Source: Minisyncoccota bacterium (GTDB lineage Bacteria > Patescibacteriota > Minisyncoccia > Phycocordibacterales > JACRKE01). Taken from it: 64,000 nt of DNA. Shown here piece by piece: positions 28,340 through 59,374 of the stretch (positions within the stretch are counted from its first letter, which is position 1; each line of letters begins with the position of its first letter). The translations under genes were made by a program, and so were the position numbers. Location: the NCBI GenBank assembly GCA_041660505.1, contig JBAZWG010000001.1:375183-439182 (forward strand), written 5' to 3'. Below the pieces are notes generated by a model, which saw nothing but the letters and a program-made list of their open reading frames with translations, made no database searches and was not told the origin of the DNA.

Positions 28340-28375
28340 AAGGTTGAACCTTTTGAATCCCTAAGGTTCAACCTT
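28340..28375. repeat. Family-3 paired palindrome element (AAGGTTSAACCTT-N10-AAGGTTSAACCTT)
   Basis: aaggttgaacctt-ttgaatccct-aaggttcaacctt; same architecture at four other sites. Confidence 0.75.
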
Positions 28376-28789
28376 GAGGAGCGCTTTCTTTATCCAAGAC
28401 CCGCCCATGCATAGAAACTTCATTTTGAACCCGCGACAGAATGTCGTGAACTCAAAAATGGGGGCGAGCAGAAGATGTGCGGTCTTCGTACTCGCCCGAG
28501 TGCCCCGTAACGTGGTGCCTCCGGTTGATTTTCTCGCGCGTGTCGCGCATTGGTAAATCAACGTAAAACAATTAACTGAATTTTAAGAAGTTTCAGTAAA
28601 CTCTCGAGCAACTAACGTGTGCTCTGGTCTAAACGCTCTCTTGAATATGCATTACCCATGCACGCCTCAAGATGAGAAGGGTTTCCCGGGGCCTTTCGGC
28701 CACCAAACCGTTTTTAATTACGATTCGGCACTTCGACGACTGCTCACTTTCCGTGAGTTTGTCGCCGGACTCGCCAAGGAAAGGCGAGT

Positions 28790-29098
28790 TTATTCTCGCT
28801 CTTTTGCCACGAAGGTCCCGTCCTTTTGGACGTGAACTTCGTAAGAGTAACCCCCTTCAGGGTTACCCCGCTGGGTCGCATAACCCAGCTCAAAAGAGAA
28901 CGCCTGACCCAGGACATCGTACAACTCCCGGGTCAGACGTCGAACATCCTCCAGCTTCGAACCAGAGGACATTCCTACGCCGTTCTCTCCGACTTTATAT
29001 CGGGAGAGAACCTCACTCAGCTTTTCGGCCTGAGCTTCCGAAATTGAGTGGTGGACGTCTGTCCACCATTCAATTTCTATATCGTAGTCTGTCGACAT
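28790..29098 (-). CDS. Small hypothetical protein (GC-rich island)
   Basis: 102 aa ORF preceded by the perfect extended SD gaaaggaggtgaatcgagATG. Confidence 0.55.
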   Translation of the reverse strand: MSTDYDIEIEWWTDVHHSISEAQAEKLSEVLSRYKVGENGVGMSSGSKLEDVRRLTRELYDVLGQAFSFELGYATQRGNPEGGYSYEVHVQKDGTFVAKERE

Positions 29099-29403
29099 CT
29101 CGATTCACCTCCTTTCTGCCGATTTTTGCCCTGACCGCCGTCATGGCGAGTCAAGTCGGGCGCGGAGTCTCGGCACCGCAGTGATTGCTCACTAATAAAC
29201 CCGCAATCTTTCGGTTACGAACTTATTAGTGAGGGTGTCCAGCAAGATTGTGCAATCTTGCTGGACACCCTGATGAGCTGGATTTCCGCCAGCTCGCCGG
29301 CGGCAAGGTCTTCCTCTGTGCGAGAGGCAGGTTCTTGCGTCCCTGGCCGTTTATAAATCAAAACGACAAAAACTTTAGAAGCATAAACCTCCATTTCTGC
29401 AGG

Positions 29404-29438
29404 CAAGGTCTCTCCTCCAAGCGGGAGGTGAGTCCTTG
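29404..29438. repeat. Family-1 palindromic element (compact hairpin form), non-coding
   Basis: aaggtctctcctcc-aagcg-ggaggtgagtcctt. Confidence 0.75.
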
Positions 29439-29594
29439 CCTACCATTTGCTCCTACCACGCCGGAGCGTTAAGCGGTTTTGTGTAGGCACTCGCCCATGC
29501 GGATGGCTACCGCATTTCCCTGTGGTCTCGCTCGCGCATTACTGCGGAGTTCCCCACTCACCTCCGGGAACGAAGGGGGCTCACCAGCCAGGTC

Positions 29595-30017
29595 TCAACG
29601 TGCGCACATCGCGCACTTGCCCTGGTAGCCTGTGAGGTGGTGGTCGGGGCAATAAATATTGCCATACTCCGACCCGCACCCACAGCTCGGGCTGTCATGA
29701 GACCAGCCGGTGGGGAGCTTCTGCCCGCTCGACCTGCCGCCTGCCGCTTTTTCATCAGCGGTTTCGACGTGGTCGAGGACGTGAGCAGGAAGCTCCACCT
29801 CCTCGAGGCTCGCGCGCTCGAAAGCACGTCGGCAATCCTCTTCCGAACAGCGGAAGTAGGTGCTGACGCTCTTCTTGAGCTCGGCCGTCTTCAGAGACAG
29901 CGCGAGCTTGAGCGCCGCCAAGGTCTTGAACACCTCGGCGTGCGTAGCCTCGAAGCTCTTGAGCGCGGCCGTTGCTTCGGCCACCTCGCCCAAGAGCTCT
30001 TCGATTTTCTTCATCAT
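29595..30017 (-). CDS. Hypothetical protein with C-terminal Cys/His cluster (GC-rich island)
   Basis: 140 aa ORF, SD aaaggaggtgaatgATG, C-terminus CGCGSEYGNIYCPDHH…CAMC. Confidence 0.55.
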   Translation of the reverse strand: MMKKIEELLGEVAEATAALKSFEATHAEVFKTLAALKLALSLKTAELKKSVSTYFRCSEEDCRRAFERASLEEVELPAHVLDHVETADEKAAGGRSSGQKLPTGWSHDSPSCGCGSEYGNIYCPDHHLTGYQGKCAMCAR

Positions 30018-30131
30018 TCACCTCCTTTCGTGAAGATGCCATTTTTTCGGAACTAACGTGTCCGGGGCTCTGAACGCCTTTCTTTTTTCGATCGCGAAAA
30101 GAAAAGTAAAAAACGATCGGACGTTGCGGCC

Positions 30132-30779
30132 CTACCTCGTGGGGGTGGTCATCCTCACGAGGTAGTCGAGGTACTCCTCCGCCTTTGCGAGGCGAACGAG
30201 CACCTCTGCCCTACCGTTCACCCAGTCGACCCTTGCGGGCTCCTGGGTGAGTCGGTAGAGCACCCAGACGTCCCCGTCAAAGAGGATGGCCGCGGGGTTG
30301 AGCTTCTGCTCCAACCCCCGGATCCGCTCCTCGATCCGGAAGACGCGGCGCCGGAGCGCTTCGCCTTCCCGAATGGCTACCGCCTGTTCGGCGGTGAAGC
30401 GCGGGGGCAGGGCAATGCCCCACACCCGTGCCTCTGCCTCCAGGCGGCGCGCCTCGCGGAGGTAATCCACGAGGGCGCCGCCCTGGACCTCCAGCGGCTC
30501 CTGCTCCCCCGTTTGGGGGTTCAGAATCCGCTGGAACCGGCTGTCGACCCGGCGGCAGTCCCGGTAGTAATACCGGGACTGCCACCCAGGGTGGGCGAGG
30601 TCTAGATACCCTCGCCCCGGGTCAGCGGCCAGGAGCGCCGACGTCCTGGCCGTGAGGAGGATGAAGAGCTGCCGGAGCAACCCCTCATACCTCCTCGGGA
30701 TCCGCCTTTCGGCGCGTTTGCGCGCCAGCGGATCGTTCACGTCGATGGGATTCATAGTACCCATCCTTTCCAAGAGCAC
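30132..30779 (-). CDS. Hypothetical protein (GC-rich island)
   Basis: 215 aa ORF (GTG at 30779, or ATG at 30755 with a partial SD). GC-rich codon usage distinct from the flanks. Confidence 0.45.
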   Translation of the reverse strand: MLLERMGTMNPIDVNDPLARKRAERRIPRRYEGLLRQLFILLTARTSALLAADPGRGYLDLAHPGWQSRYYYRDCRRVDSRFQRILNPQTGEQEPLEVQGGALVDYLREARRLEAEARVWGIALPPRFTAEQAVAIREGEALRRRVFRIEERIRGLEQKLNPAAILFDGDVWVLYRLTQEPARVDWVNGRAEVLVRLAKAEEYLDYLVRMTTPTR

Positions 30780-31333
30780 GTTGCTCCTGAATTTAATCGC
30801 GAAAAAATAATTTTGATTCGTGTGTAAATTCAGAAGCCCTTCAGCTTTTTTGCGGAAAGCGGAAGGGTTCGTGCGAATTATGATATGTGTGCCGTATCAA
30901 AATTCTAATTGTGCCCAATCAGACGCCTGCATATCCGGGACTTTGGATGCTGGGGCAGGCCGCCGACTTGCCGGGGTAGATCGACCCGGCAGCGGCCGGG
31001 GAGTTTCCTGCGCGTTGGGCGCAGGTCTTCTCCCAGTAACTGGCCACGACCTCCTTGGTCGTGGCGATGGCCAATTTGACTTGATAGTCCAATATCCTTT
31101 TATCGAATAAATTTTCTGGTTTCATATATTTGTTATTTATTATTCTAATTCTTCCTTGTTCTCACCACAAGTTTTACTTGCGATGAGAATCAGGAGGAGG
31201 AGCGAGGATACTGTGCAGTATTTCGCTCCCCTCGTGAGTGCTTGTCCCCGTGCAGGGGACCTTTTTTGTGCTCGTTTCTTTTTTCCGAAAAAAGAAACGA
31301 TGCCGAAAGAAAAACTATTTAAGTTTGCGGGGG

Positions 31334-31666
31334 TTAGGCCCGCTTCAGCCCCTTGCAGCCGACGGGCTGGCCGTCGGCGCCCCTGACCAAGTCGCCCGGG
31401 GCGAACACGTCGCCCCGCCCGGCGACTGTCGGGTGAGCGGCCACCAGGCCGCTCACCACGTAACCCACCCCCTCCTCGGGGGCCGGGAGGCCAGTCACCT
31501 CCCCGTAGGAGGCACGGCAGGTGGGGAAGCCTGCCACCTCCTTGTCCGCCACGAAGGTGGCGGCGGTCCGGGCAACCTGCCCGGACGGGTCGATGGACCC
31601 GACCTGGGCGTTCCCGCCCAGGTCTAAAATGTTGATCCGGTGCGGGGTGAGGTTGACGAGACGCAT
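31334..31666 (-). CDS. Hypothetical protein (GC-rich island)
   Basis: 110 aa from MRLVNLTPHRINI…, SD ggaggaaagg 9 nt upstream of ATG. Confidence 0.5.
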   Translation of the reverse strand: MRLVNLTPHRINILDLGGNAQVGSIDPSGQVARTAATFVADKEVAGFPTCRASYGEVTGLPAPEEGVGYVVSGLVAAHPTVAGRGDVFAPGDLVRGADGQPVGCKGLKRA

Positions 31667-31838
31667 AATGCGTCCTTTCCTCCGATTTATGCCTCGGAGC
31701 ACGGCTTTGGATTCAAGACCACGTTGGGCCCTGAAATTTTCACTCGAATTTTCAAGTGGAAATTTCAGGGTAAAGGATATTTATAAGAACATTCTTCCGT
31801 GAACGTTTTCCTCACGACTAAAAACACAAGGTCGGTGT

Positions 31839-31903
31839 CCGAGGTCTCACCTCTGGCCTGTCTGCTTATTGCAGACTTGGGTTGGCCTGAGGAGAGACCT
31901 CGG
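31839..31903. repeat. Family-1 palindromic element (long-loop form), non-coding
   Basis: ccgaggtctcacctc-(35 nt)-gaggagagacctcgg. Confidence 0.75.
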
Positions 31904-32660
31904 ACGCGCAAACATTTTGCGTTCTTGGTCGTGAGGCTGAACATATGTTCAGCCTCCTTCTTTCCCTGTCGAACAACGCCTTGGCTATTTGCCTCGGACT
32001 TACTCGCTCGCAGGGTATTCTGTTGTCAAATAACCCGGTCGTTCTGTTGCATGCTATTACCCATACAACTTCAGATTCTCTTCGTTACTCCCCGCCTGCC
32101 ATCGCCTGAAGCTCAGGCTTTGGCGGGCAGGTCTCCTCAAAAGTTCTCTCCTCTTTTGGATTAACGATGCCGTTTGGTTCTCTCCTCACTTCTATCAGTG
32201 AGTGTCGGGGACGGAAGTTGGATGTCCTTCTGTCCCGACGCACTCATTGCTAGCGCATATACTGAATGTATCATTGCCTCCGCTTCTCTCTTTCTTAACC
32301 CTACTTGCCGGTTAGGGCGACCGTCCGGGGCTTTGGTATTGGCATACCTCGCCTTGTCCGGATCAGAGTTGAACGGTGTTACATTCTGTCGTATATGACC
32401 CTTGCGGGATTTTTGTAAAGACCTAATGCTTCCCTCTCCTCCTTGTCCGCCGGTGAGGCGGGTTATCTTATATAGAGAGAAGATTGTGTCCGACTTGCTG
32501 TCCGCTCCAATCTTCTATCTGTATTTTTTAACTGGCATAATCATACGCTAGCCTTGCCAGATTGTCAATACTATGTGATAGTTTATGGCATTTAGCGTCA
32601 TAAAGCCTTGATATTAGCCAAAATAGTGGCTTTATTGTGTTATCAGAGTGTCAAACTGTA

Positions 32661-32689
32661 TTGACAAGTAAAAGTCAAGATGATAGTAT
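32661..32689 (+). promoter_or_regulatory. Consensus sigma70-type promoter for TrmB-like gene 32759, with TGTCAA/TTGACA palindromes
   Basis: TTGACA-17 nt-TAGTAT. Upstream gtgtcaaactgtattgacaag and attgtcaatac inverted repeats overlap the -35. Confidence 0.6.
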
Positions 32690-32693
32690 GGCC

Positions 32694-32754
32694 GAGGAGA
32701 GACCTCTGGCTTGCCGTCTTATCGCCGGCTTTAATCAGCCCGAGGACTCACCTC
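32694..32754. repeat. Family-1 palindromic element forming the 5' UTR of the TrmB-like gene
   Basis: gaggagagacctc-(35 nt)-gaggactcacctc, starting ~5 nt after the -10 and ending 4 nt before the ATG. Confidence 0.75.
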
Positions 32755-32758
32755 ATCT

Positions 32759-33583
32759 ATGGGCGCAATATACAAAGAGAATCTGGTTCAGATAGGCTTA
32801 TCCGATAAGGAGGCGGTGGTCTATGAGGCCTTGCTCGGAGGTAAAGAGAACAGTATCGGCCAGTTATTGCATAAAATCCCCGAGATTAAGCGCCCCAATA
32901 TGTATGCCCTGCTCTATAGCCTTAAAGGCAAGGGGTTGGTGCAAGAGGTAGAGAAAAAGGGCAAAAAGGTCTTCACGCCGGAATCGCCCCAAAAGCTTGT
33001 CGACTTCGTCGATGCCAGAGGCTTCGAATATGAGCAAGCCAGGACAAATCTCGATTCCGCTCTCCCCTCTCTCATCTCGCAGTTCAATCTAGCCTCCGGC
33101 AAGCCGAACGTGCAGTTTTATGAGGGCGAGAAGGGTATGGAGAAAGTGGTCTTTGACTCGCTCACCTCAAAAACTGAAATACTTTCTTACGTCGACCACG
33201 AAGCGGTTGAGAAGTACTTCGCATCGTTCAACTCTCGCTATGTGGCCGAGCGCATAAAGAAAAATATTAAAAAGAAAATCATTGCGCTTGATACGCCCAG
33301 TATTCGCGAGGCGGCTAAGACGAGATATAATCCGGAATACACCGATGCCCGTGTTATCAGTGCCAGTAAATATGCGTTTGCGACAGTAATGCAAATCTAC
33401 GACGGCAAGGTGTCGTATCAAACATTAGACGAGAAGCAACTGGTCGGCGTAATAATTCAGGACGAGCGCATTTATAAAATGCATAAAGCTCTTTTCGAGT
33501 ACACGTGGGAGACGGCAGAGAATATTATGCCGCCTTCAACTCTTCCTGCTCTACCGACGCCTGATCTTCCCGCAGTAATGTAA
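32759..33583 (+). CDS. TrmB-family transcriptional regulator (copy 3)
   Basis: N-terminal wHTH IGLSDKEAVVYEALL…IPEIKRPNMYALLYSLKGKGLV plus C-terminal TrmB-like domain. 274 aa. Confidence 0.75.
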   Translation: MGAIYKENLVQIGLSDKEAVVYEALLGGKENSIGQLLHKIPEIKRPNMYALLYSLKGKGLVQEVEKKGKKVFTPESPQKLVDFVDARGFEYEQARTNLDSALPSLISQFNLASGKPNVQFYEGEKGMEKVVFDSLTSKTEILSYVDHEAVEKYFASFNSRYVAERIKKNIKKKIIALDTPSIREAAKTRYNPEYTDARVISASKYAFATVMQIYDGKVSYQTLDEKQLVGVIIQDERIYKMHKALFEYTWETAENIMPPSTLPALPTPDLPAVM

Positions 33584-35741: not shown

Positions 35742-35760
35742 GACGGAATGTTGAGTTAAG

Positions 35761-36009
35761 CTACTTTGACTTCCTCTCCCGCTTGCTGAAGTAGTAGATA
35801 TACAATATTTCTAAGATTCCCATCGTGTTGACGATAAGCAAGGCGACGAACCAGACTTTGTCATTCTTGTGCGCTGCCTTCCAGAGGGCAATACCCTTCA
35901 AGGCGATTACAGCGACGAAAGCCGCAGCCAATATTACCGTCACGGCAAGAACCTGCGGGTTACTCAAGTCCCAAGTACCCGTTCGAAAAATAGAGGCAAT
36001 TGATTGCAT
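35761..36009 (-). CDS. Small membrane protein, PLDc_N-like
   Basis: 82 aa, two TM helices, …VWFVALLIVNTMGILEILYIYYFSKRE resembles the PLD nuclease N-terminal domain family. Confidence 0.4.
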   Translation of the reverse strand: MQSIASIFRTGTWDLSNPQVLAVTVILAAAFVAVIALKGIALWKAAHKNDKVWFVALLIVNTMGILEILYIYYFSKRERKSK

Positions 36010-36033
36010 ATATTTTGATATTAGCTATTAAGG

Positions 36034-36105
36034 TCGGGGCGCCGGGAATCGGACCCGGTCTACATGCTCCCAAAGCACGCGTACTACCGGTATACTACGC
36101 CCCGA
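36034..36105 (-). tRNA. tRNA-Pro (anticodon TGG)
   Basis: Reverse complement: acceptor CGGGGCG/CGCCCCG, same D-arm as the other Pro tRNAs, anticodon loop TTTGGGA. Confidence 0.8.
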
Positions 36106-36142
36106 GTAGTTGAGCTACTTTAGCACAAATACATAAGAGACA

Positions 36143-36583
36143 CTAGCAGATATCAATGTCCTCTAGGATGCGGACGCGGCCTACATGCGCCTCCCTATCC
36201 ACTTCTACTGTTACCACGTCTAATTGCCAATCAGGCTCTTCGTCTTCGTCGTCTGGATATTTAGATAGTAAATAGACTTCTATCGTTCTGCGTAGCCTCT
36301 TGAGCTTCCAGGGGTGCACGTTCTCTTCGGCTTCATAGTCTTCGTCGTCTGGATCCGAGGAGAGACCTCCGCCTTTGCCGGAGGACTCTCCTCGGATTTT
36401 GTCGGCCGTCACCGATTTTACTTCGACAAAGTGCAAATTGCCGTCTTTTAGCGCGATAATGTCAATTTCACCATATTTCTTGCGGTAATTACGCTCTATT
36501 ACTGTATATCCATGGCGCTCCAGATAGGTCGTGGCGCAGTTCTCCCCTATTTGGCCGATAACTTGCTTGTCGGTTTGAGCCAT
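36143..36583 (-). CDS. yraN: YraN-family (UPF0102) endonuclease with in-frame family-1 element
   Basis: GENCATTYLERHGYTVIERNYR…GEIDIIALKDGNLHFVEVKS…. Insert encodes GESSGKGGGLSS. Confidence 0.8.
   Translation of the reverse strand: MAQTDKQVIGQIGENCATTYLERHGYTVIERNYRKKYGEIDIIALKDGNLHFVEVKSVTADKIRGESSGKGGGLSSDPDDEDYEAEENVHPWKLKRLRRTIEVYLLSKYPDDEDEEPDWQLDVVTVEVDREAHVGRVRILEDIDIC
36356..36395. repeat. Family-1 palindromic element in-frame inside yraN
   Basis: cgaggagagacctcc-gcctttgcc-ggaggactctcctcgg; near reverse-complement identical to the pcrA copy. Confidence 0.85.
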
Positions 36584-36720
36584 ATTTTATGGGTCAAGTC
36601 TTATATGCAATGTCTGTTATCCCCACTGTACACAGACTTATCCACAGTTTTCTGTGTGTAACGTTTATTTCTGTGGGCTGTCTTTATATTTAGAGACACA
36701 TTGGGTGTCTTAGACTTTGG

Positions 36721-36791
36721 TGCGGCCAGGGAGAATCGGACTCCCGCCTGCTCGTTGGCAACGAGCCGTCCTACCATTAAACTATGGCCGC
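36721..36791 (-). tRNA. tRNA-Gly (anticodon GCC)
   Basis: Reverse complement: acceptor GCGGCCA/TGGCCGC, anticodon loop TTGCCAA, T-loop GAGTCCGATTCTC. Confidence 0.8.
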
Positions 36792-36857
36792 TTTTTCAAT
36801 TATGCAATTCTACACTTTTTTTACTGAAACCTCAAGCACTTTTCTAAAAAACACTTG

Positions 36858-36929
36858 TGCACCCGGAGGGATTCGAACCCCCAAAGACAGCTTCGAAGGC
36901 TGTAGTGATATCCGTTTCACCACGGGTGC
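36858..36929 (-). tRNA. tRNA-Arg (anticodon TCG)
   Basis: Reverse complement: acceptor GCACCCG/CGGGTGC, anticodon stem ACAGC/GCTGT with loop CTTCGAA, short variable loop, T-loop GGGGGTTCGAATCCCTC. Confidence 0.75.
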
Positions 36930-37021: not shown

Positions 37022-39388
37022 TTGATGAGGCCCGGGCCGAAACCAAAGATATACATTTCTACTGAGTGGTCTAGCAACCTCGCTTATGCAGTTGGTCTTA
37101 TCACTGCTGATGGCTGTCTGTCAAAGGATGGCCGCCATATTGACTTTACATCAAAAGACCCAGATCAAATAGAAACCTTTATCAGGTGCCTCGGACTTCA
37201 CTCACTTGTTAGACCAAAGAAATCCGGTGCTGGAAGGTTTGCATTTCGAACCCAGTTTGGGAATGTATCGTTTTACAGATTTCTATTAGGCATTGGACTA
37301 ACGCCCGCAAAATCGAAAACTATTTCGAAACTTGAAATTCCCGACGAATATTTCTGGGATTTCATGCGTGGATATTTCGATGGTGACGGCACGAGCTTTT
37401 CGTATTTTGATCCGGTATTTCCTAAAAGCTATCGTTTTTATGTTGCTTTCGCTTCGGCAAGTGAGCCATATCTACTTTGGCTACAAGAGAAGGCATATAG
37501 GTCCGCAGGGTTAAAAGGCTACATTAACAGAGGCGTTAACCCTTCAAGCCTACAACTCAAGTATGCGAAGAAAGAAGCAATAGTCTTATGTCAAAAAATG
37601 TATTATGATGATAGCGCTCCCAGACTCCAAAGAAAATACGAGAAAATCTTGGATTCGATGAGCATTATTAACAGCAAACGCCGGGGTGGTGAAATTGGTA
37701 TACACGCAGCGTTCAGAACGCTGTGGGGGCAACCCCATGGAGGTTCAAGTCCTCTCTCCGGCACTTTTAACTCATTTCACGTGAAAAATAAGAAAGAATC
37801 TCCAGCTTACTATATCCCCTCCCATGTTCTGGGGGTTGTAACTACTTTACAAAAGGCCGGCTTCGAGGCATATCTCGTCGGTGGCTGTGTGCGCGATATA
37901 TTGATGGAGAACAAGCCAAAAGACTGGGATGTTACGACAAACGCCCGCCCGGAGCAGATCCAAGCCCTATTTAACGAGACTTTCTATGAAAACGAGTATG
38001 GCACGGTCGGCGTCGTGGTAGAAGACCTTTCACGTGAAAAGCTCAATATCGTTTCACAAGAAACGTTTGATGAGCTTTCACGTGAAAGCATGGAAGCCTT
38101 AGAGGTCGAACCTCGGGCTCCCAGAGGTTCGACCTCGGGCGCAGACCCAAGCCCGAAAGAGGTGATCGAGGTTACACCTTATAGGCTAGAAACCAAGTAT
38201 TCCAACTTTCGCCATCCGGACGCTGTCACCTTTAGCACCAGTCTGGGGGACGACCTGAAACGCCGGGATCTGACCATCAATGCCATCGCTTATGACCCCA
38301 ATAGCCCTAAAGGACAGTTTATAGACCCCTTTAACGGTCTAAAGGACATAAAGGACATGGTAATCCGCGCCGTAGGAGAGCCCTCGGACCGCTTCTGCGA
38401 GGATGCTTTGCGCATGATGCGTGCGGTGCGCCTGGCCGCCCAGCTCGGCTTTATGATTGACCCTGCGACCGAGCAAGCGATTGTTGCGAACAAGGCGCTT
38501 ATCACTAAGATAGCGGCCGAGCGTATCCATGACGAACTTATGAAGCTTTTAAATACCGAGTACGCGGTTGATGGCATTAGGTATCTAAAGATTACCGGCC
38601 TTCTTGAACTTATAATCCCTGAACTTCTTGAGGGGATAGGCATAGAGCAGAGAGGGGAGCATATCTATGACGTCTGGGAGCATAACCTCAAGTCGCTCGA
38701 ACACGCCGTCAAGAAGGGTTGGCCATTTCACGTGAGACTTGCAGTGCTGTTACACGACGTGGGCAAGCCGCGTACGCGCTTGCGCGATGAGGAGAGGCAA
38801 ATCTGGACATTCCATGGCCATGATGTGGTCGGTGGCAAGATGACCAAAAAGATACTTGAACGGCTCAAATTTTCACGTGAAATGATTGATAATATTTCTA
38901 AACTAGTGCGTTATCATCTTTTCTTCTCCGATACCGATAAAATCACGCTTTCTGCCGTACGCCGGATGATTCGCAACGTCGGCGCTGATTTGATATGGGA
39001 TTTAATGAAGGTGCGCCAGTGCGACAGAATAGGCACGGGCCGGCCCAAAGAAAGTCCTTATAGACTGCGCAAATACGAAGCGATGATAGAAGAGGCAATG
39101 CGCGATCCAATATCGGTGCAGATGTTAAAGATTGACGGCGCGAAGATAATGGAAATAGGGGAGATGGACCCCGGGCCGAAGATTGGCTGGGTGTTGCACG
39201 CCTTACTTGAGGAAGTACTAGAAGACCCGGCTAAGAATACGACAGAGTATCTGGAGACTCATACTAAAAAATTATTGGCACTTTCTGACAAGGAATTACA
39301 AGAACTCGGTGAAGCGGGAAAGGAGAAGAAGTCAGGGCTTGAAGAAGCGGCTATAGAAGAAATCAACAAGAGACACTACGTGAAGTAA
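37022..39388 (+). CDS. cca: CCA-adding enzyme (tRNA nucleotidyltransferase, HD domain) with an N-terminal LAGLIDADG homing-endonuclease-like domain and internal repeat-derived insert
   Basis: Residues ~1-210: two LAGLIDADG motifs (LAYAVGLITADGCL; FMRGYFDGDGTSF). Residues ~270-788: pol-beta nucleotidyltransferase (GGCVRDILM…DWDVTT), RRDLTINA, HD domain (LLHDVGKP). One continuous 788-aa ORF. Confidence 0.85.
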   Translation: MMRPGPKPKIYISTEWSSNLAYAVGLITADGCLSKDGRHIDFTSKDPDQIETFIRCLGLHSLVRPKKSGAGRFAFRTQFGNVSFYRFLLGIGLTPAKSKTISKLEIPDEYFWDFMRGYFDGDGTSFSYFDPVFPKSYRFYVAFASASEPYLLWLQEKAYRSAGLKGYINRGVNPSSLQLKYAKKEAIVLCQKMYYDDSAPRLQRKYEKILDSMSIINSKRRGGEIGIHAAFRTLWGQPHGGSSPLSGTFNSFHVKNKKESPAYYIPSHVLGVVTTLQKAGFEAYLVGGCVRDILMENKPKDWDVTTNARPEQIQALFNETFYENEYGTVGVVVEDLSREKLNIVSQETFDELSRESMEALEVEPRAPRGSTSGADPSPKEVIEVTPYRLETKYSNFRHPDAVTFSTSLGDDLKRRDLTINAIAYDPNSPKGQFIDPFNGLKDIKDMVIRAVGEPSDRFCEDALRMMRAVRLAAQLGFMIDPATEQAIVANKALITKIAAERIHDELMKLLNTEYAVDGIRYLKITGLLELIIPELLEGIGIEQRGEHIYDVWEHNLKSLEHAVKKGWPFHVRLAVLLHDVGKPRTRLRDEERQIWTFHGHDVVGGKMTKKILERLKFSREMIDNISKLVRYHLFFSDTDKITLSAVRRMIRNVGADLIWDLMKVRQCDRIGTGRPKESPYRLRKYEAMIEEAMRDPISVQMLKIDGAKIMEIGEMDPGPKIGWVLHALLEEVLEDPAKNTTEYLETHTKKLLALSDKELQELGEAGKEKKSGLEEAAIEEINKRHYVK
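37775..38902. repeat. Cluster of five TTTCACGTGAAA 12-bp palindromes inside the CCA gene
   Basis: Copies at 37775, 38028, 38076, 38726 (tttcacgtgaga) and 38891, in two different codon phases. Confidence 0.8.
38103..38140. repeat. Family-3 paired palindrome element, in-frame inside the CCA gene
   Basis: gaggtcgaacctcggg-ctccca-gaggttcgacctcggg, encoding LEVEPRAPRGSTSG. Confidence 0.7.
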
Positions 39389-39409
39389 GAAGTGCGTGAT
39401 ACAATAGCA

Positions 39410-39445
39410 AAGGTTCAACCTTAGGCATTCAAAAGGTTGAACCTT
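39410..39445. repeat. Family-3 paired palindrome element, intergenic
   Basis: aaggttcaacctt-aggcattcaa-aaggttgaacctt. Confidence 0.8.
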
Positions 39446-52697: not shown

Positions 52698-52706
52698 AAA
52701 TAATCC

Positions 52707-54236
52707 ATGCTTGCGAAAGTCCATTCTGCACAAGTCACCGGCTTACGAGCAGATATAATTGATATTGAGGTTGATATTTCCAAATCGTTAAAGTCTTTCA
52801 CTATAGTCGGCTTGCCGGATAAGGCTGTAGAAGAAGCGAAGGACAGGATCTCGGCGGCAATAAAAAATTCCGGCTATCCGTCACCACACAAGGGCAATAA
52901 AAAAACCGTTGTTTCACTGGCGCCGGCGGACATAAAGAAAGAGGGACCGATCTTCGATCTCGGCATTGCCCTGGGCCACATGAAGGCATCGAAGACTATC
53001 GAGTTCGATGCGCGGGATAAAATCTTCGTCGGCGAGCTGTCGTTAAACGGCGACCTGCGCCCGGTGAAGGGGATACTAATGATCGCCCGCAAGGCTAAAG
53101 AAGAAAAGTTTAAAGAACTTTATGTGCCGGCAGATAATGCCAAAGAAGCGGCGCTTATCGAAGGCATAAACGTGTACGGGTGTAAAAATCTTAAGCAGAT
53201 AGTCACACACTTAACACCCGGCCCGAGCTTCAAAATAAAACCGAATCCGAAGACGGAGATAATATACGTAGAGCCAACTTACGTGACAGATATGGCGCAC
53301 ATTCATGGTCAGGAATCGGCTAAGCGCGGGCTCGAGATAGCCGCAGCCGGTGGCCACAACATCATCATGAGCGGTCCACCTGGGACAGGCAAGACGATGC
53401 TCGCCAAGGCTTTCGTTGGTATCCTCCCGCCACTCTTATTCGACGACGCGCTCGAAGTGACTGGTATATATTCTGTCGCGGGGCAATTGGATGAAGAATT
53501 AATGACCCATCCGCCTCTGCGCTCACCGCATCATACATCATCATATGTGTCCCTCGTCGGTGGCGGGACATTCCCCAAGCCGGGGGAGATTACGTTGGCT
53601 CATCGCGGAGTATTATTCCTTGATGAATTCCCCGAATTTGAAACTAGAGTTATCGAAGCATTACGTCAACCATTAGAAGACAGGGTCATTCACGTCTCGC
53701 GCATCAAAGGCACCGTCAAATTCCCGGCAAGCTTCATTCTTGTCGCGGCTATGAACCCATGCCCCTGCGGTAATAAGGGCTCGAAGAAGAAAGAATGTAT
53801 CTGCAACCAGTCTATGCTAATGAAATATTCTCGCAAAATATCCGGCCCCATAATTGACCGCATCGATTTATATTTAGAAGTTCCGCAGATAGAACATGCT
53901 AAACTCGCCGACACCGGCTATCACGGCGAGTCATCTAAGACGGTGCAAGCACGCGTAAAGAAGGCGAGAGAAAAGGCGCTCACGCGATTTAAGAATGCCG
54001 GGGTAAATATAAATATGAACAGCGAGATGAGCGGGGAACAGCTGAAGAAACTCGTGCCGTTAACCAAAGAATGCTCGCAAATACTCATTTCGTCTGCAGA
54101 GAGGTTGAACCTTTCCGCAAGGGCATATCATCGGGTTATCAAACTCGCGCGCACTATCGCCGACCTCGCCGATGCAGAAAGTGTCGCTGAAAATCATATC
54201 TTAGAAGCTTTACAGTACCGCCCCAAGGTTGCATAA
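52707..54236 (+). CDS. comM: YifB/ComM-family Mg-chelatase-like AAA+ ATPase
   Basis: 509 aa; N-terminal Lon-protease-like domain, Walker A GPPGTGKTMLA, ChlI/MCM-like core, characteristic C-terminus. Confidence 0.9.
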   Translation: MLAKVHSAQVTGLRADIIDIEVDISKSLKSFTIVGLPDKAVEEAKDRISAAIKNSGYPSPHKGNKKTVVSLAPADIKKEGPIFDLGIALGHMKASKTIEFDARDKIFVGELSLNGDLRPVKGILMIARKAKEEKFKELYVPADNAKEAALIEGINVYGCKNLKQIVTHLTPGPSFKIKPNPKTEIIYVEPTYVTDMAHIHGQESAKRGLEIAAAGGHNIIMSGPPGTGKTMLAKAFVGILPPLLFDDALEVTGIYSVAGQLDEELMTHPPLRSPHHTSSYVSLVGGGTFPKPGEITLAHRGVLFLDEFPEFETRVIEALRQPLEDRVIHVSRIKGTVKFPASFILVAAMNPCPCGNKGSKKKECICNQSMLMKYSRKISGPIIDRIDLYLEVPQIEHAKLADTGYHGESSKTVQARVKKAREKALTRFKNAGVNINMNSEMSGEQLKKLVPLTKECSQILISSAERLNLSARAYHRVIKLARTIADLADAESVAENHILEALQYRPKVA

Positions 54237-54322
54237 TTTCAGAAAAAGAGTATTATTTCCGACGGCAGAGTTTTCCGCTGCCTTACAGTCACTGGTCGCG
54301 ACGGACCTAAAGGAGGCCCGTT

Positions 54323-54898
54323 TTGCTTTCTGAAACCGAAAGAACTTTCATCAACAAGCTTCGCGAGGATGAGGTACTCCGAGATATTCGTCGCGATTTG
54401 TTGACGAACTTCTTTACTGAAGGAGCGCTTCTTGTAGCCTGCGGAGACTGCGAAAGATTCTGGGAGGCTATCGATTGGTTGCGAAACCATACCGACGGCC
54501 TACTTTCTCAGGACAAGTGGCGATTGCAGTTGTGCGTCTTCAACGGCGCACCGTTGCATCTTTCACGCAAAATGAGTTGGGAGCACAAGTTCATTCTGGA
54601 GCAATTTTCCCAGACGAACAGCTTCAAGAGCATTGAGCGTGTTATTGTCCACGGACATGGCCCTTGTAGCGCGGCAGGGCATATGGGGCTAACCCTCCCA
54701 CAGAATCTTGCGCTCACAATGCATGCCCGTGAGGTGATCGTTGACGTTTTCGGGCTCAAACCCGAAAACGTCATTGCCCTGTTCCATGCACATTACCGCG
54801 ACAAAATGCGGTTGTACAAAATCAAAAGGAGTGCATGGAAACGCGCAACAGAAGAGAACCATGATGTTCGGGTAGGGTTGCACACCCTATCGATATAG
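54323..54898 (+). CDS. Hypothetical protein
   Basis: 191 aa ORF. Preferred over the overlapping antisense 83-aa ORF because it is followed by a clean terminator. Confidence 0.45.
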   Translation: MLSETERTFINKLREDEVLRDIRRDLLTNFFTEGALLVACGDCERFWEAIDWLRNHTDGLLSQDKWRLQLCVFNGAPLHLSRKMSWEHKFILEQFSQTNSFKSIERVIVHGHGPCSAAGHMGLTLPQNLALTMHAREVIVDVFGLKPENVIALFHAHYRDKMRLYKIKRSAWKRATEENHDVRVGLHTLSI

Positions 54899-54915
54899 GT
54901 AGCGGAAAAACACGA

Positions 54916-54955
54916 CCCCCATCGCACACGCGGTGGGGGTCGGGGAGTTTTTAAT
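54916..54955 (+). terminator. Rho-independent terminator
   Basis: gaccccca-tcgcacacgcgg-tgggggtc then ggggagttttta. Confidence 0.65.
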
Positions 54956-54959
54956 TCTT

Positions 54960-54995
54960 AAGGTTCGACCTTAAGCATCCAAAAGGTCGAACCTT
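54960..54995. repeat. Family-3 paired palindrome element, intergenic
   Basis: aaggttcgacctt-aagcatccaa-aaggtcgaacctt. Confidence 0.8.
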
Positions 54996-55002
54996 TTAAA
55001 TT

Positions 55003-55836
55003 CTAAAACGGATTACGTGCGCCGCGGACTTCGAAGTGCAGGTGCGGACCGGTGGATTTGCCGGTATCGCCTAAGAGGCCAATGACTTGGCCTTGGGTAA
55101 CGTGTTCGCCTACGCCTACTGATGATTTAAGCAAGTGCCCGTATAAAGTCTGAGTACCATTAGTGTGCGCAATCACAATATAATTACCATATCCGCCATT
55201 ATAGCCACTGTTATTTTTACTTATCAGAACATCGCCCTCGGCGGCAGCAAGAACAGGTGAGCCTTCAGGCAGTACAAGATCGACGCCGTTATGGCCGTGA
55301 AGTCCTTGCGTGCGCCGATAGCCAGGCAGAGGGTTTGTATAAAAAGAATCTTTATTCGGCAAGATTTTTACTGATTTAGTGGACTTTTTTATCGGCTTGG
55401 CAACCGGCTCTTCGATTGATATCGGCAGGATGGTCAGATGCATGCCGTCTATAATCGGCTCGTTCTGTCCTAGGTCGTTGGCTTTACGAATAGTATATTC
55501 CGTCACGCCGTACATGTGCGCAATTTCTGATAGAGTTTCGCCCTTTCGTACAACATATACAGCAATCTGGTCGGCATTGGTGTCATCTTCATCATCAAAT
55601 CCACCGATACCGCGAGTTAGGGTCGGCTGGGGGAGGTATAGTGTCTGAGAATTAACACTACTCATCGCTCCACCGTCAGCATCCGCCAAGGCACTCCGAA
55701 CATAGTCGGCATTGCCGCTAAATAACGGCCTAGATACGAGATATAACAGAAAAAGAGCCCCGATGACGAGCCCTCGATTTTTCCACGTTTTTAGCTGTTG
55801 TTTCTTCGCTTTCCGCACAGGGATATAGTATAGCAA
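55003..55836 (-). CDS. LysM-domain M23 family metallopeptidase
   Basis: LysM (YVVRKGETLSEIAHMYGVTEYTIRKAN) plus M23 motifs (HNGVDL…; GHLLKSSVGVGEHVTQGQVIGLLGDTGKSTGPHLHFEVR). Confidence 0.85.
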   Translation of the reverse strand: MLYYIPVRKAKKQQLKTWKNRGLVIGALFLLYLVSRPLFSGNADYVRSALADADGGAMSSVNSQTLYLPQPTLTRGIGGFDDEDDTNADQIAVYVVRKGETLSEIAHMYGVTEYTIRKANDLGQNEPIIDGMHLTILPISIEEPVAKPIKKSTKSVKILPNKDSFYTNPLPGYRRTQGLHGHNGVDLVLPEGSPVLAAAEGDVLISKNNSGYNGGYGNYIVIAHTNGTQTLYGHLLKSSVGVGEHVTQGQVIGLLGDTGKSTGPHLHFEVRGARNPF

Positions 55837-55896
55837 AAAATCGACCCCCTTTCGAGTTTATCCACACGACATTACGCCTGTCAAGACACCCTTATT

Positions 55897-56235
55897 TTAG
55901 ATCAAGAATAGCTTTTTGAGACGCGATTTTACCTGCTTCATATGGTCCTCATCAATAATACCGATATCGCCAAGAATAATGCGCCGATCAAGCGTGGCGA
56001 GTTTGGCGACCCGAATGACTGAATCTGACTTTAGTCCGGTTCTTGCAAAATGCGGGTCGGTCCGTTTTATAAGAACATCCATTGGATCAGTACGCTCGGT
56101 GTTTGTTGAAATAAATGCCACGACAAAATCCTCGCTCGCTGAATGTTCCGCAATAACGACGGCGGGGCGCACCTTTGCTTCGGAAAGATCTGAATAGGGG
56201 AATGGCGTCAAAACAATTAGCCCTCGTTTAGACAT
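55897..56235 (-). CDS. MazF/PemK-family toxin (mRNA interferase)
   Basis: 112 aa; GLIVLTPFPYSDLSEAKVRPAVVI…VAFISTN is the PemK/MazF signature. Confidence 0.7.
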   Translation of the reverse strand: MSKRGLIVLTPFPYSDLSEAKVRPAVVIAEHSASEDFVVAFISTNTERTDPMDVLIKRTDPHFARTGLKSDSVIRVAKLATLDRRIILGDIGIIDEDHMKQVKSRLKKLFLI

Positions 56236-56479
56236 AGCGGTGCTTTAGGTCAGCCATAGAATATAGATCCGGCTCATCATAAAGAAAATCGAATGAGGGA
56301 GAGCTTGCATTAATCTTCGTAATCTCATTTACCTCTCGAGAGAACTCTCGCGGATATGGAATTAATAAGACTTCCGGCTCATTCCATCGGCCAATCGCCA
56401 CGGCTTCGCTTTTCTGCCGCACATGATCAATTAGATCGGAAAACTGTTTGCGTGCTTCAGTGGTTGATAGAGTTTTCAT
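56228..56479 (-). CDS. Putative Phd/YefM-like antitoxin
   Basis: 83 aa, overlaps the toxin start by 8 nt. N-terminus LSTTEARKQFSDLIDHVRQKSEAVAI matches the Phd/YefM pattern. Confidence 0.5.
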   Translation of the reverse strand: MKTLSTTEARKQFSDLIDHVRQKSEAVAIGRWNEPEVLLIPYPREFSREVNEITKINASSPSFDFLYDEPDLYSMADLKHRYV

Positions 56480-56521
56480 ATCACTATAATATCATTTTTG
56501 TACAATTTGTACAAATTCAAA

Positions 56522-58900
56522 TTATAAGCGTAATCTTGCCAAGATATCCGCTTCGACGTCTTCTAGATCTTTGCCGTAGACGAGGCGGGAGAGTTCTTTT
56601 AGCTTTTCGCGGACTTCCGCATTGCCGGGCGGGGGAGGGAGCAGGTGCATCGTGAACGGGCGAGACGGCTGGCCATTTATGAGCATCTTCACGTGGGCGA
56701 ATTTGTTCTCTATGCTAATTAAATCCTTTGCGGTGAAGATCGGGTCGAATTGTTTACCAAGCACTTCTGTATCCGGCACGCCGACGCGGCAGGCGATAAC
56801 GGAGCCGACGTTGCCGAAGACGGCATCGCGAATCTTCTCCGGCATCTGGGCGACGAACTGGTGAGCAATTATCATATCAAGGCGATATTTGCGCGCCTCG
56901 GAGAGAATGGTCGCGATGGAGTCGGTGGTAAAGTTCTGGAACTCGTCTATATATAGATAGAAATCGCGGCGATCTTCTTGGTTAATTATGTCAGAGCGCC
57001 CGAAGGCCGCCATCATCAGCTTGCCGACGATAATCATACCGAGAAGGTTGGCGTTTAACTCGCCGATTTTTGCCTTAGGCAGATTGATGAAGAGCATCTT
57101 GCCCTCGTCCATCAGCTTGCGGAAGTTGAAGGCCGACTTGGGCTGGCCAATAATCGGGCGGACGAAATCGTTCGAGAGGAAGTTACCGAACTTGGAGGTA
57201 ATCCAGACGGTCATATTAGCAAGCGAGTGTTCGCCGGAAGTTTTCGTCGCTTCGCGCTCCCAGAAGTCGATGACGGTCGGATTCTTTACGCGCGCAAGTT
57301 TGCGTTTGCGAAAGGCCTCATCGGTAAATATTCGAGGCACTTCTACGAGCGTGCACGGCTCGTTAACCGCGTCTTCCATGAGTAGGAGCAGAGCATTGCG
57401 CATGTATTGCTGGAACATCGGCCCCATACTCTGCGCGTCGAAGAGGCGGTCGAAGATGGACTGGATCTCGGATACGACGAAGCTCTTCTGTTCCGGATTA
57501 TCCAGGTCATATTCGAGCATGTTAAGGCCTAATGGGCGCGCGATATCTGATGGATCGAAGATGATAACGTCGTCTATCCTCTCCTTCGGCACAAGCGCCA
57601 ACATATCGTTAAAAAAGTCGGTGTTCGGATCAATAAGACAGAATCCTTTGCCGTTCACAATATCTTGCGCCACCATATGTTTCATCGTAAGCGTCTTACC
57701 GGTACCGGTCTGGCCGATAATATAGAGATGTCGGCGACGGTCGTCGTCGGTCATGCGGACATTCTTATGCTCGTCGCGATAAACACTCTCGCCTATAATA
57801 ATGCCTGCATCCGGCAAGCTCTCCGGCGGGGGAGCCTCGCGCGACGTGAGCCACTTGATGCGCGGAATGTCGGTCGAGGATGTTGGCAAGTGGAAGATGC
57901 TGGCAAGCTCCTCACTGCTTAAGATCATCGTCTGTCCGCCGTCGTACTCGCGAAAAGAATATTCATAGATTAAGCGTTTCAGATTCTTCGGCCTCACTGG
58001 CACAAGCTCGTTGCGCACCGGAGAAGAGAACTGTGAGAAAGAAGCGATAACGGAATTCAAAATACTTTCCGCTCTAGCCATGTCTGTTGCCGAGGCAAGT
58101 ACGCGGACGTTCACCGCAAAGAGCGGCTTAGAGACTTTCTCTTGTAGTGCCTTAATTGCGTCGTCGTCGGTAACTCTGTATGTTTCTTCTCTTTTTTCTT
58201 TTTTTGTATTCGTCGTCGGCTTAAGGACTTTATAAAGTTCTTTCGTCGTTATGAACTGCTTCTTCATCACGCGAGAGAACTTCTCGCCTTGCTTCAAGTT
58301 GCGGATAGCGTCCATTATTTTCTTCCTCGCCCTCTTATGCGCCGGCTGGAAGATAATCTGGAGCGAGACGCCTTCGCTCACATCGGCGAGCTTGGAGAAG
58401 TTGGAGAGTATCGGGGCGAATGTGTCTACCTGCGCCTCTTTATAAGTGCGAATTGGCGCCACATAACTCTGTTTCTGAGTAAAATAGGCCCCTACGGTCG
58501 CGCCATTCGGTTCGAAGATATTATAATCTGCGGTCTCTACAACCTGGCTGTCGGGGAAGAGCCCTTGGATCTGGCGTGAAGCAAACTCAACATAAGCCTC
58601 CGGCACGGCAATATAGAAGAAGATATCCTCGCCGATGCGATGTACGGATGTTTCGAAAACGACCGGTTGTTTAACCGATGTAAGTGCGGAGAAAATCTGC
58701 TCGGTCAACGCAACCTCTTTGGTAAAATCTATTTGCTCGTTTCTATTTGTGCCGAGCTCATCTTTACGTTTGGCAATTTTAATAATGAGTAGCTTTAGAT
58801 TAAGCGTATCCAGGCGCCCGACGCGGAAATGGTTGTACGCCATAATCCCGCCGACAATAATGATCGCGATAGTTATAAACGTAAAGCCAAGTAGATTCAT
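56522..58900 (-). CDS. VirD4/TraD/TraG-family type IV coupling protein-like ATPase
   Basis: 792 aa; N-terminal TM helix, Walker A GQTGTGKT, Walker B-like LYIDEFQNF, TraG-D_C-like C-terminal region. Confidence 0.65.
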   Translation of the reverse strand: MNLLGFTFITIAIIIVGGIMAYNHFRVGRLDTLNLKLLIIKIAKRKDELGTNRNEQIDFTKEVALTEQIFSALTSVKQPVVFETSVHRIGEDIFFYIAVPEAYVEFASRQIQGLFPDSQVVETADYNIFEPNGATVGAYFTQKQSYVAPIRTYKEAQVDTFAPILSNFSKLADVSEGVSLQIIFQPAHKRARKKIMDAIRNLKQGEKFSRVMKKQFITTKELYKVLKPTTNTKKEKREETYRVTDDDAIKALQEKVSKPLFAVNVRVLASATDMARAESILNSVIASFSQFSSPVRNELVPVRPKNLKRLIYEYSFREYDGGQTMILSSEELASIFHLPTSSTDIPRIKWLTSREAPPPESLPDAGIIIGESVYRDEHKNVRMTDDDRRRHLYIIGQTGTGKTLTMKHMVAQDIVNGKGFCLIDPNTDFFNDMLALVPKERIDDVIIFDPSDIARPLGLNMLEYDLDNPEQKSFVVSEIQSIFDRLFDAQSMGPMFQQYMRNALLLLMEDAVNEPCTLVEVPRIFTDEAFRKRKLARVKNPTVIDFWEREATKTSGEHSLANMTVWITSKFGNFLSNDFVRPIIGQPKSAFNFRKLMDEGKMLFINLPKAKIGELNANLLGMIIVGKLMMAAFGRSDIINQEDRRDFYLYIDEFQNFTTDSIATILSEARKYRLDMIIAHQFVAQMPEKIRDAVFGNVGSVIACRVGVPDTEVLGKQFDPIFTAKDLISIENKFAHVKMLINGQPSRPFTMHLLPPPPGNAEVREKLKELSRLVYGKDLEDVEADILARLRL

Positions 58901-58904
58901 AAAT

Positions 58905-59324
58905 TTATTTTACCAAACCTCGTGATTTCATCTCACTATAAAGTTTATCGGTAAGGGCGTCGTGGAAGACGTCGAGCAGGAAAGGGTCTTCTTCTATAAC
59001 CTGGCGCAGTGTGGCCTGGATGCCGTTATGGAACGCTTGCGCGACGTAGCCGTTAACTTTAGCGACCGTCGCATCATCCACAGTATCGAGATAACTTTTG
59101 CTACCGGCTTGGGCTTTCTTGACAGCGGCTTGCCCCGAGCTTGTCGAGGGGGCTGGCACTTGCGTAGTATCATCGGTTGTGGCAGATGGGGCACTCCTCG
59201 GTAGGAGCTCGCTGATTTTCTCGGTGAGCGCGGCATGCAACTGCTCTTTAGCGTCAGATGCCGGTCTCTCACTTGCAACCGCTTGTGTTAATGCCGCGAG
59301 TTCTGCGTCGAAATTTGAGTCCAT
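58905..59324 (-). CDS. Hypothetical protein upstream of the coupling-protein gene
   Basis: 139 aa ORF, 4 nt from the next gene, probably same operon. Confidence 0.45.
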   Translation of the reverse strand: MDSNFDAELAALTQAVASERPASDAKEQLHAALTEKISELLPRSAPSATTDDTTQVPAPSTSSGQAAVKKAQAGSKSYLDTVDDATVAKVNGYVAQAFHNGIQATLRQVIEEDPFLLDVFHDALTDKLYSEMKSRGLVK

Positions 59325-59338
59325 AAATTTTTTGATTT

Positions 59339-59374
59339 AAGGTTCAACCTTTTAGGTGCTTAAGGTTGAACCTT
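59339..59374. repeat. Family-3 paired palindrome element, intergenic (divergent promoter region)
   Basis: aaggttcaacctt-ttaggtgctt-aaggttgaacctt. Confidence 0.8.

Follow-up and report, generated by a model that had tools for sequence, protein, structure and literature searches.

Two short palindromes, set at a fixed distance from each other, recur several times in a stretch of 64,000 nucleotides of a Minisyncoccota (Patescibacteria) genome (contig JBAZWG010000001.1, positions 375,183 to 439,182; hereafter the window), and the question raised by this locus is what kind of element such a pair represents. Four pairs lie between genes and a fifth one lies within the gene of the CCA-adding enzyme. 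We consider it probable that all of these units are inverted doublets of repetitive extragenic palindromic (REP) sequences, i.e. a minimal version of the REP doublets forming hairpins (REPINs), that they are spread among the ultra-small Patescibacteria, and that in related genomes they are the cognate repeat of a transposase of the HUH (histidine-hydrophobic-histidine), single-tyrosine (Y1) type that resembles the REP-associated tyrosine transposases (RAYTs). The layout is that of a minimal REPIN: two REP cores of 13 nt, 9-10 nt apart, whose pairing within a single strand of nucleic acid gives a 13-bp hairpin. The observations behind this reading are the repetition of the unit, compensatory changes that preserve its hairpin, its wide distribution, its presence in frame inside genes, and an association with RAYT-like genes that is both physical and sequence-specific.

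In the window, AAGGTTSAACCTT is matched exactly six times, always within one of three pairs with a 23-bp register, while none is expected according to 100 dinucleotide-preserving shuffles. In the fourth pair (54960/54983), each arm carries one substitution (AAGGTTCGACCTT and AAGGTCGAACCTT) and the two compensate each other. As an initial annotation of this DNA had proposed for the four intergenic copies, the second arm is in every pair the exact reverse complement of the first, giving a perfect 13-bp stem closed by a 10-nt loop. The spacers are related to one another once oriented: AGGCATTCAA for the 39410 copy, AAGCATCCAA for 54960, and, as reverse complements, AGGGATTCAA for 28340 and AAGCACCTAA for 59339, so that the first two copies are assigned to the plus strand and the last two to the minus strand. 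When folded as single-stranded DNA, the window units reach -12.3 to -16.7 kcal/mol (z -3.8 to -6.7). The element is thus dispersed and present in multiple copies, with five doublets in 64 kb of the window and at least 17 in one relative with a 1.3-Mb genome, and doublets prevail over single units, of which the window has one or two candidates. A covariance model built without the CCA-gene copy detected no further doublets in the 64-kb window beyond these five. No Rfam family matches the window copies at gathering thresholds, and over 28-32.8 kb of the window Rfam returns nothing at E<=0.1 except one chance miRNA match. With roughly one doublet per 13 kb, nearly always paired, and the link to RAYT-like genes described below, we rejected the possibility of a DNA-uptake sequence.

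How far does this element extend beyond the window? We scanned one genome per GTDB species for the exact doublet, leaving both central bases free as S (C or G) and allowing any 10-nt spacer. This yielded 68 copies in 64 loci of other genomes (loci are designated L below), almost all of them Patescibacteria: Moranbacteria/Moraniibacteriota, Paceibacterota, and Taylor-, Vogel- and Liptonbacteria; the genome with at least 17 copies belongs to a Moraniibacteriota. The genome of the window is absent from this species set, given that its own exact doublets were not among the hits. The central bases, which the scan did not constrain, are complementary in 67 of the 68 copies, against a fraction of 0.62 in shuffles. 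Pairing also goes beyond the core, since the three positions outside it and the first three positions of the spacer are paired in 62-79% of the copies, involving all four Watson-Crick pair types, and these values were reached by none of 1000 shuffles. Many copies are in fact perfect palindromes of 42-52 nt, and the unit measures 35-52 bp overall. In an alignment of 72 copies, 50 have a C..G pair of central bases and 17 a G..C pair, and the two classes cannot be converted into one another by reading the opposite strand. The G..C copies mostly have non-palindromic spacers and are often intragenic, in the RLNL..GST frame; they may be an older or a protein-constrained subset.

These patterns bear directly on the idea that each 13-mer palindrome is an operator bound by a dimeric transcription factor, in the manner of the CIRCE/HrcA system, the two dimers sitting 23 bp apart as the dimer of dimers put forward in the initial annotation. 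Every arm is indeed itself palindromic, two of the window copies are bracketed by a -10-like box and a start codon, and the 13-mer is conserved across lineages, even though this last point must be read with the fact that the scan itself required the 13-mer. However, it is the pairing between the arms that has been kept. In the 54960 copy, an A>G change in the first arm is compensated by a T>C change in the second, so that the 13-bp inter-arm stem persists while each arm has lost its own palindromy; the copy in the CCA gene (38102) has likewise lost arm symmetry with its inter-arm pairing intact; and in the 28340 copy both central bases are swapped with respect to the other copies, which amounts to a compensated double change. 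Together with the covariation of the 68 copies, this argues that the hairpin of the whole doublet is maintained, and not two independent dimer sites, for which complementary centres in 67 of 68 copies would not be required. Nor does the position of the copies fit with operators: housekeeping genes harbour 27 of the 68 in frame, a pair of convergent genes surrounds one of the window copies, and -10 boxes adjoining copies are not enriched across genomes (3 observed for about 2 expected), so that the sites are not confined to promoters. The downstream genes have no common function. In the window they encode proteins of 318 and 139 aa without a Pfam family and a VirD4/TraG-like ATPase, with no chaperone and no shared theme, and a heat-shock or other operator was rejected for this reason. 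We therefore regard the operator reading as very improbable. More generally, the context of the copies is not regulatory: among the 72, 28 fall within genes, the neighbouring genes are co-directional in 31 cases, convergent in 4 and divergent in 5, and the last 4 are at the edges of loci, while the four intergenic window copies are found in one tandem, one convergent and two divergent contexts.

The 27 intragenic copies elsewhere sit in frame within long open reading frames (ORFs) of unrelated housekeeping genes, among them those for MurD, PheT, ValS, ArgS, CysS, UvrA, UvrC (twice in one gene), LepA, Fmt, TilS, YchF, MurB, an ELP3-like enzyme and an ABC ATPase. Three frames are used in translation (KVQP..RLNL, RLNL..GSTF and GSTF..KVEP), which means that the element is a DNA-level one and not a peptide motif, and these frames are the ones without the TGA that the G-centred arm has in one of its frames. 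In LepA, the copy coincides with 9 extra loop residues with respect to the solved structure. The term extragenic hence describes these repeats only in part: four of the five window copies are extragenic, yet the 38102 copy and the 27 others are in frame inside genes. This trait is not new in kind, as intragenic REPs are documented for classical families, including in-frame copies in uvrA and tRNA synthetase genes, and as the Rickettsia palindromic elements (RPEs) were also described before (PMC3733652). We also noticed that orthologues from different genomes can carry an insert at the same site, as in MurD (L003 and L039), the ELP3-like enzyme (L017 and L030) and UvrC (L023 and L055), and that these inserts differ in length, reading phase or palindrome family, a comparison of sequences that suggests insertion hot spots or in-place turnover of the repeats.

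Three of the intragenic copies fall in a single protein family with the motif ..AYCLNPNHYHF.., which is an HUH motif, and such HUH Y1 genes are present in 8 of the 64 loci selected by the repeat. Their products match the Pfam family Y1_Tnp (PF01797, IS200-like transposase) with 31-37 bits for a gathering threshold of 23, their sole NCBIfam match is REP_Tyr_transpos (NF047646), and both NPNHYHF and the catalytic tyrosine Y152 are invariant in the protein alignment. Because the link by sequence alone to a solved RAYT is weak, we turned to structure prediction. The AlphaFold model (mean predicted local distance difference test, or pLDDT, of 83.6) has as its best Foldseek match in the PDB 4er8_A, the Escherichia coli RAYT bound to a REP hairpin (E 1.5e-5, template modelling score, or TM, of 0.66 on the target), and the TnpA proteins of IS608 and ISDra2 rank next (ranks 2-24). 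The family is very large: at 90% identity it comprises no fewer than 7,998 clusters, most of them of Moranbacteria and Parcubacteria, and some of its members have been named 'REP element-mobilizing transposase RayT' by the Joint Genome Institute (JGI). Considering the HUH and Y1 signatures, the predicted fold and a score under the NCBIfam equivalog cutoff, the protein is best called RAYT-like.

The relation between these genes and the palindrome is a close one. In L051, TTGACGAAGGTTGAACCTTCGTCAA immediately precedes the RAYT-like gene, the same 25-27-nt palindrome directly follows its stop codon, and the gene itself carries an in-frame doublet some 10 residues ahead of the HUH motif. L036 has the variant TATCGAGGTTSAACCTCGATA immediately upstream of the gene, twice inside it and across its stop codon. 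The cognate palindrome flanks the RAYT-like gene in L075, L135 and L136 as well. This supports the likeness to REP and BIME (bacterial interspersed mosaic element) repeats that had initially been noted, since the same core flanks, and sits inside, HUH Y1 genes of related Patescibacteria. We also took the reverse path, in which RAYT-like loci were fetched from metagenomes independently of the motif, with a protein alignment from which the motif-encoded segment had been removed (80 loci kept of 421 confirmed). A relaxed version of the core occurs 18 times in the 70.5 kb that are within 150 nt of, or inside, the RAYT-like genes, and 5 times in the 284 kb farther off, which makes it about 14-fold denser close to the genes. 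In 58 of the 71 testable loci, a match of 10 nt or more is common to the upstream and the downstream flank, mostly a perfect palindrome of 20-27 nt that differs between lineages (e.g. ACTTGGGAGTCGGACTCCCAAGT or CAGATAGAGGTTAAACCTCTATCTG), and in 58 of 75 loci the flanking palindrome recurs within the coding sequence (+150..210 and/or +425..470), again with a sequence that varies with the lineage. This arrangement is that of a REPtron, in which a RAYT gene is flanked by its own REPs, with the unusual addition of cognate copies inside the gene. The internal palindromes (L065-L144, and also L028, L034, L036 and L051) occupy two fixed in-frame places, one in a poorly modelled loop before the HUH motif and the other after the helix of the catalytic tyrosine.

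One may still wonder if the enzyme is needed at all. The palindromes could be selfish elements comparable to the RPEs, spreading by recombination, gene conversion or some other transposase, in which case the association with RAYT-like genes would reflect an insertion preference or shared ancestry only. Such a view would account for the in-frame intragenic habit, which is also that of the RPEs, as well as for the lack of a RAYT gene in the 64-kb window, and it has a precedent in the CGTC-type REPs, reported without a dedicated transposase (PMC3733652). It is nonetheless unlikely, because both the flanking and the internal palindromes change along with the lineage of the RAYT-like gene, which is the signature of a cognate REPtron and not of chance insertion, and because the predicted fold is closest to that of a REP-bound RAYT.

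Several points do weigh against the REPIN-RAYT interpretation. The RAYT-like transposase that the initial annotation advised looking for does exist in related genomes, in a family generally flanked by lineage-specific palindromes, but tblastn reveals no RAYT-like gene within the 64-kb window. This particular core is present in just 11 of the 80 RAYT-like metagenome loci, and some RAYT-like genes close to copies of the repeat are flanked by a different palindrome (L030). The NF047646 scores (25-43 bits) are far under the 80-bit cutoff, and the sequence-profile search, which also puts 4er8 first, does so without significance (E 0.18). In the window copies there is no unpaired GTAG or CGTC tag such as the classical REP superfamilies have; their flanks (TAGCA, TTCTT, TCCTC and TGGCA) share no tetranucleotide, and in L023 and L051 a CGTC is present but paired within the stem. 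Finally, we found no polymorphism between empty and occupied sites. The case of L030 indicates that several REP families coexist in these genomes. As regards the single copy per genome that sets RAYTs apart from IS200, one metagenome-assembled genome (MFRX) has two divergent RAYT-like genes with different palindromes.

If we put these elements together, the doublets are probably mobilised as single-stranded hairpin DNA by the cognate RAYT, a mobility that we infer from the copy number, the distribution and the REPtron architecture. By analogy with E. coli TnpA-REP and the TnpA of IS200/IS605 (PMC3479197), the RAYT-like enzyme would bind the hairpin where the DNA is single-stranded, as on the lagging-strand template, and would then cleave and rejoin it, copying the doublet to new sites. 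The doublet would be the non-autonomous copied unit, as was proposed for REPINs (PMC3116915, PMC3337134). Selection would remove the harmful insertions, the survivors being those in short intergenic spacers and in the surface loops of proteins, and survival inside a gene would demand that the frame be kept (36- or 42-nt insert) and that no stop codon be created. A much broader proposal, which we find possible though rather doubtful at this stage, is that the Patescibacteria harbour a phylum-wide and vertically persistent REPIN-RAYT system. In such a system, the RAYT gene would always carry its own hairpin in frame at two fixed coding positions and at both ends, thereby coupling the specificity of the enzyme to the sequence of the repeat through self-recognition or autoregulation, and the repeats would be a major source of the short insertions seen in housekeeping proteins of the candidate phyla radiation (CPR), such as the CCA enzyme, the aminoacyl-tRNA synthetases and UvrABC.

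The features of the window are collected in Table 1, with the immediate surroundings of each copy.

Table 1. Palindromic units of the window and the features next to them
Feature	Position	Strand	Description
Exact pairs AAGGTTSAACCTT-N10-AAGGTTSAACCTT	28340/28363, 39410/39433, 59339/59362		
REP doublet (REPIN-like), C..G class	39410..39445	+	AAGGTTCAACCTT-AGGCATTCAA-AAGGTTGAACCTT; -12.6 kcal/mol, z -5.8; covariance model 54.4 bits; 21 nt past the CCA gene stop, 8 nt ahead of the ATG of a 318-aa gene (39454)
REP doublet, C..G class	59339..59374	-	Strand set by spacer AAGCACCTAA; 14 nt upstream of the ATG of a 139-aa gene (59324, minus strand), which is followed by a VirD4/TraG-like gene
REP doublet variant	54960..54995	+	AAGGTTCGACCTT-AAGCATCCAA-AAGGTCGAACCTT; -13.3 kcal/mol; between convergent genes, 7 nt past the stop of an M23/LysM peptidase gene (minus strand)
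REP doublet, G..C class	28340..28375	-	Spacer AGGGATTCAA on the minus strand; inside an ORF-free gap of ~600 nt
Divergent intragenic REP doublet	38102..38136	+	GAGGTCGAACCTC-GGGCTCCCA-GAGGTTCGACCTC; perfect 13-bp stem; -16.7 kcal/mol
47-residue insertion in the head domain of the CCA-adding enzyme vs solved homologues	38021..38161	+	Houses the 38102 doublet and two smaller palindromes
Tentative single REP-like unit, related core	212..236		25-bp perfect palindrome CTAGCG-GAGGTTGAACCTC-CGCTAG; -13.2 kcal/mol
Bidirectional intrinsic terminator (context only)	54913..54942		GC-rich 13-bp hairpin, T-runs on both strands
Extended -10-like box (TGnTAnnnT)	39394..39409	+	GCGTGATACAATAGCA; ends 4 nt before the doublet; common to the 59339 copy
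Extended -10-like box	59375..59390	-	GCGTGTTATACTGGCA (minus strand); ends 4 nt before the doublet

The copy in the CCA gene deserves a closer look. The in-frame and degenerate copy that had been reported there is real, but it extends over 38102-38136, with a 9-nt spacer and a 22-bp register, and not over 38103-38140. A covariance model built without this copy recovers it at 20.4 bits (E ~8e-4), and the reading frame of the CCA-adding enzyme renders it as ..LEVEPRAPRGSTSG... Relative to the Bacillus enzyme 1MIV, the insertion that houses it comes after residue 72 and before residue 77: residues 19-84 and 132-279 of the protein align to residues 7-72 and 77-221 of 1miv, and the PolyA_pol head domain is matched in two separate parts. 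The insertion also carries CGTTTCacaaGAAACG (38050-38065) and GCTTTCacgtGAAAGC (38072-38089), both small palindromes, and, judging from its sequence, looks as if it were built from several hairpin units. The CCA-adding enzyme shares a single uninterrupted open frame (37022-39388) with a LAGLIDADG_3-like domain at residues 20-88 and with a predicted tRNA-Leu(CAG) gene at 37680-37764, which places a homing-endonuclease-like ORF directly upstream of the tRNA and CCA genes. Homology to the CCA enzyme starts at about 37823 and, since there is no ATG between the tRNA and this point, a GTG near 37790 is the likely start of the CCA gene.

The single unit at 212..236 has the architecture of the single units that flank the RAYT-like genes of L036 and L051. 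The doublet model scores it weakly (E 1.6), and we regard it as a putative member of the family.

Could the hairpins instead be selected by the host as RNA, mainly as transcription terminators or as stabilisers of the 3' or 5' ends of mRNAs? The hairpins are stable, most intergenic copies are found in short spacers between co-directional genes, two of the window copies would form 5'-terminal stem-loops, and classical REPs do have such secondary roles (PMC3733652). However, of the three window copies initially said to come immediately after intrinsic terminators, only 54960 does so; the terminator scan found none between the stop codon of the CCA gene and the 39410 copy, and none around the 28340 copy, the 28137 hairpin being about 170 nt away and devoid of a T-run. 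The copies themselves were rejected as intrinsic terminators, given that a terminator adjoins just one window copy and that a T-rich tail was seen at only 11 of the 144 strand-sides of the 72-copy set. In addition, selection on RNA leaves unexplained both the in-frame intragenic copies and those flanking or inside RAYT-like genes, and a purely structural role would not keep the sequence of the stem constant across lineages. We thus hold it to be improbable that host-selected RNA hairpins are the main explanation.

This does not prevent individual copies from having local consequences. As the 39410 and 59339 copies come after an extended -10 box and before a start codon, both mRNAs, that for the 318-aa protein and that of the 139-aa/VirD4-like operon, would have the hairpin at their very beginning, the start codons coming 8 and 14 nt past the element, respectively, with no Shine-Dalgarno sequence. 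Such a 5'-terminal 13-bp stem-loop could stabilise the message, or limit initiation or alter translation. It is not a general property of the element, considering that the -10 boxes beside copies are not enriched across genomes. Intergenic copies do seem to be close to downstream start codons, but calling the longest ORF biases that distance. The two copies share 55 nt (85%), including GCGTGaTAcAaT.GCA, which matches the extended -10 boxes that precede uvrD and the tRNA genes of the window, and on the strength of this shared segment the two promoter-proximal cases may be one duplicated unit. The promoters at 60320-60340 and ahead of the tRNA genes resemble extended -10 boxes (TGnTAnAnT). The uvrD box (TGTTATACT) stops 6 nt short of the ATG at 60338, suggesting that the mRNA is leaderless.

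Other repeats are found in the window. The 28000-32700 stretch is GC-rich (0.55-0.58, for about 0.48 elsewhere), has few long ORFs and contains many perfect hairpins of 10-18 bp, such as those at 29232-29271, 30554-30583 and 31272-31300. One palindromic family, CCGAGGAGAGACCTC.., occurs at 19741, 31839, 31887, 32692, 36355-36395, 44017 and 61372-61412, including 41-nt doublets that are 93% complementary; a second one, CCCTCTCCTTCGGGGAGGGG.., occurs at 12276-12314, 27458 and 61896-61978; and a third one, ATCAACACYSRGTGTTGAT, of 22 nt, is found with a 100% match at 174-195 and 20083-20104. All three are probably further REP-like families of this genome.

An independent Logan assembly of the same organism (SRR18595301) illustrates a practical side of the matter. 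Its contig with the 139-aa gene ends inside the first arm of the 59339 doublet (L145 1-44 corresponds to window 59325-59368), which means that the repeat fragments short-read assemblies. The same locus has a PhdYeFM/PemK toxin-antitoxin pair downstream of the VirD4-like gene (around window 55897-56479).

To our knowledge, REP and REPIN-RAYT systems have been studied almost entirely in Proteobacteria. In the literature searched, we found no paper linking REP or RAYT to Patescibacteria, and the 13-mer was found only in unrelated fungal papers. The system described here would be a compact version of REPIN-RAYT in streamlined genomes, where repeats are least expected, with copies that are often in frame within essential genes, and it has some unusual traits: its minimal size, its self-palindromic arms, a core common to class-level lineages, and a RAYT coding sequence that contains cognate copies. 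It also provides a rule for annotating a 36-nt repeat that recurs, interrupts assemblies and lengthens proteins by loops of 12 residues, and a possible explanation for some of the CPR-specific protein insertions. Moreover, the large natural series of RAYT and palindrome pairs with co-varying specificity would be useful for learning how HUH enzymes read hairpins.

It remains to place this element among the known systems. With the CIRCE/HrcA operators, two window copies share an inverted repeat with a 9-10-nt spacer between a -10 box and a start codon, but the Patescibacteria doublets are not restricted to promoters, are found inside genes as well, and precede unrelated genes. With the RPEs and the intragenic REPs of Di Nocera et al. 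2013 (PMC3733652), they share in-frame insertion in housekeeping genes, translation as extra loop residues and even targets such as uvrA, uvrC and the aminoacyl-tRNA synthetases. However, RPE-1 is about 100-150 bp long and restricted to Rickettsia, so that the 35-52-bp unit fits neither its size nor its consensus; there is no sequence similarity, and a candidate transposase can be identified for the Patescibacteria element. The TnpA proteins of the IS200/IS605 family (IS608, ISDra2) have the same fold and HUH/Y1 chemistry and recognise hairpins on single-stranded DNA, but they belong to autonomous, multi-copy insertion sequences with unlike left and right ends, whereas the palindromes described here are identical at both flanks of the gene and dispersed as non-autonomous copies. 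The REPIN-RAYT systems of Pseudomonas and Enterobacteria (E. coli TnpA-REP, 4ER8) have the same inverted pair of REPs folding as one hairpin, the same excess of doublets over singlets and the same compensatory evolution (PMC3116915, PMC3337134), and likewise an HUH/Y1 gene flanked by the palindromes of the repeat. Compared with them, the Patescibacteria element is much reduced in size (36 nt, of which 9-10 nt are spacer) and has no unpaired GTAG guide tetranucleotide; each of its arms is a perfect 13-nt palindrome, many of its copies are intragenic, the cognate palindrome is also found in frame inside the RAYT-like coding sequence, and the protein is only a distant relative, under the NCBIfam cutoff and with 12% identity to 4ER8.

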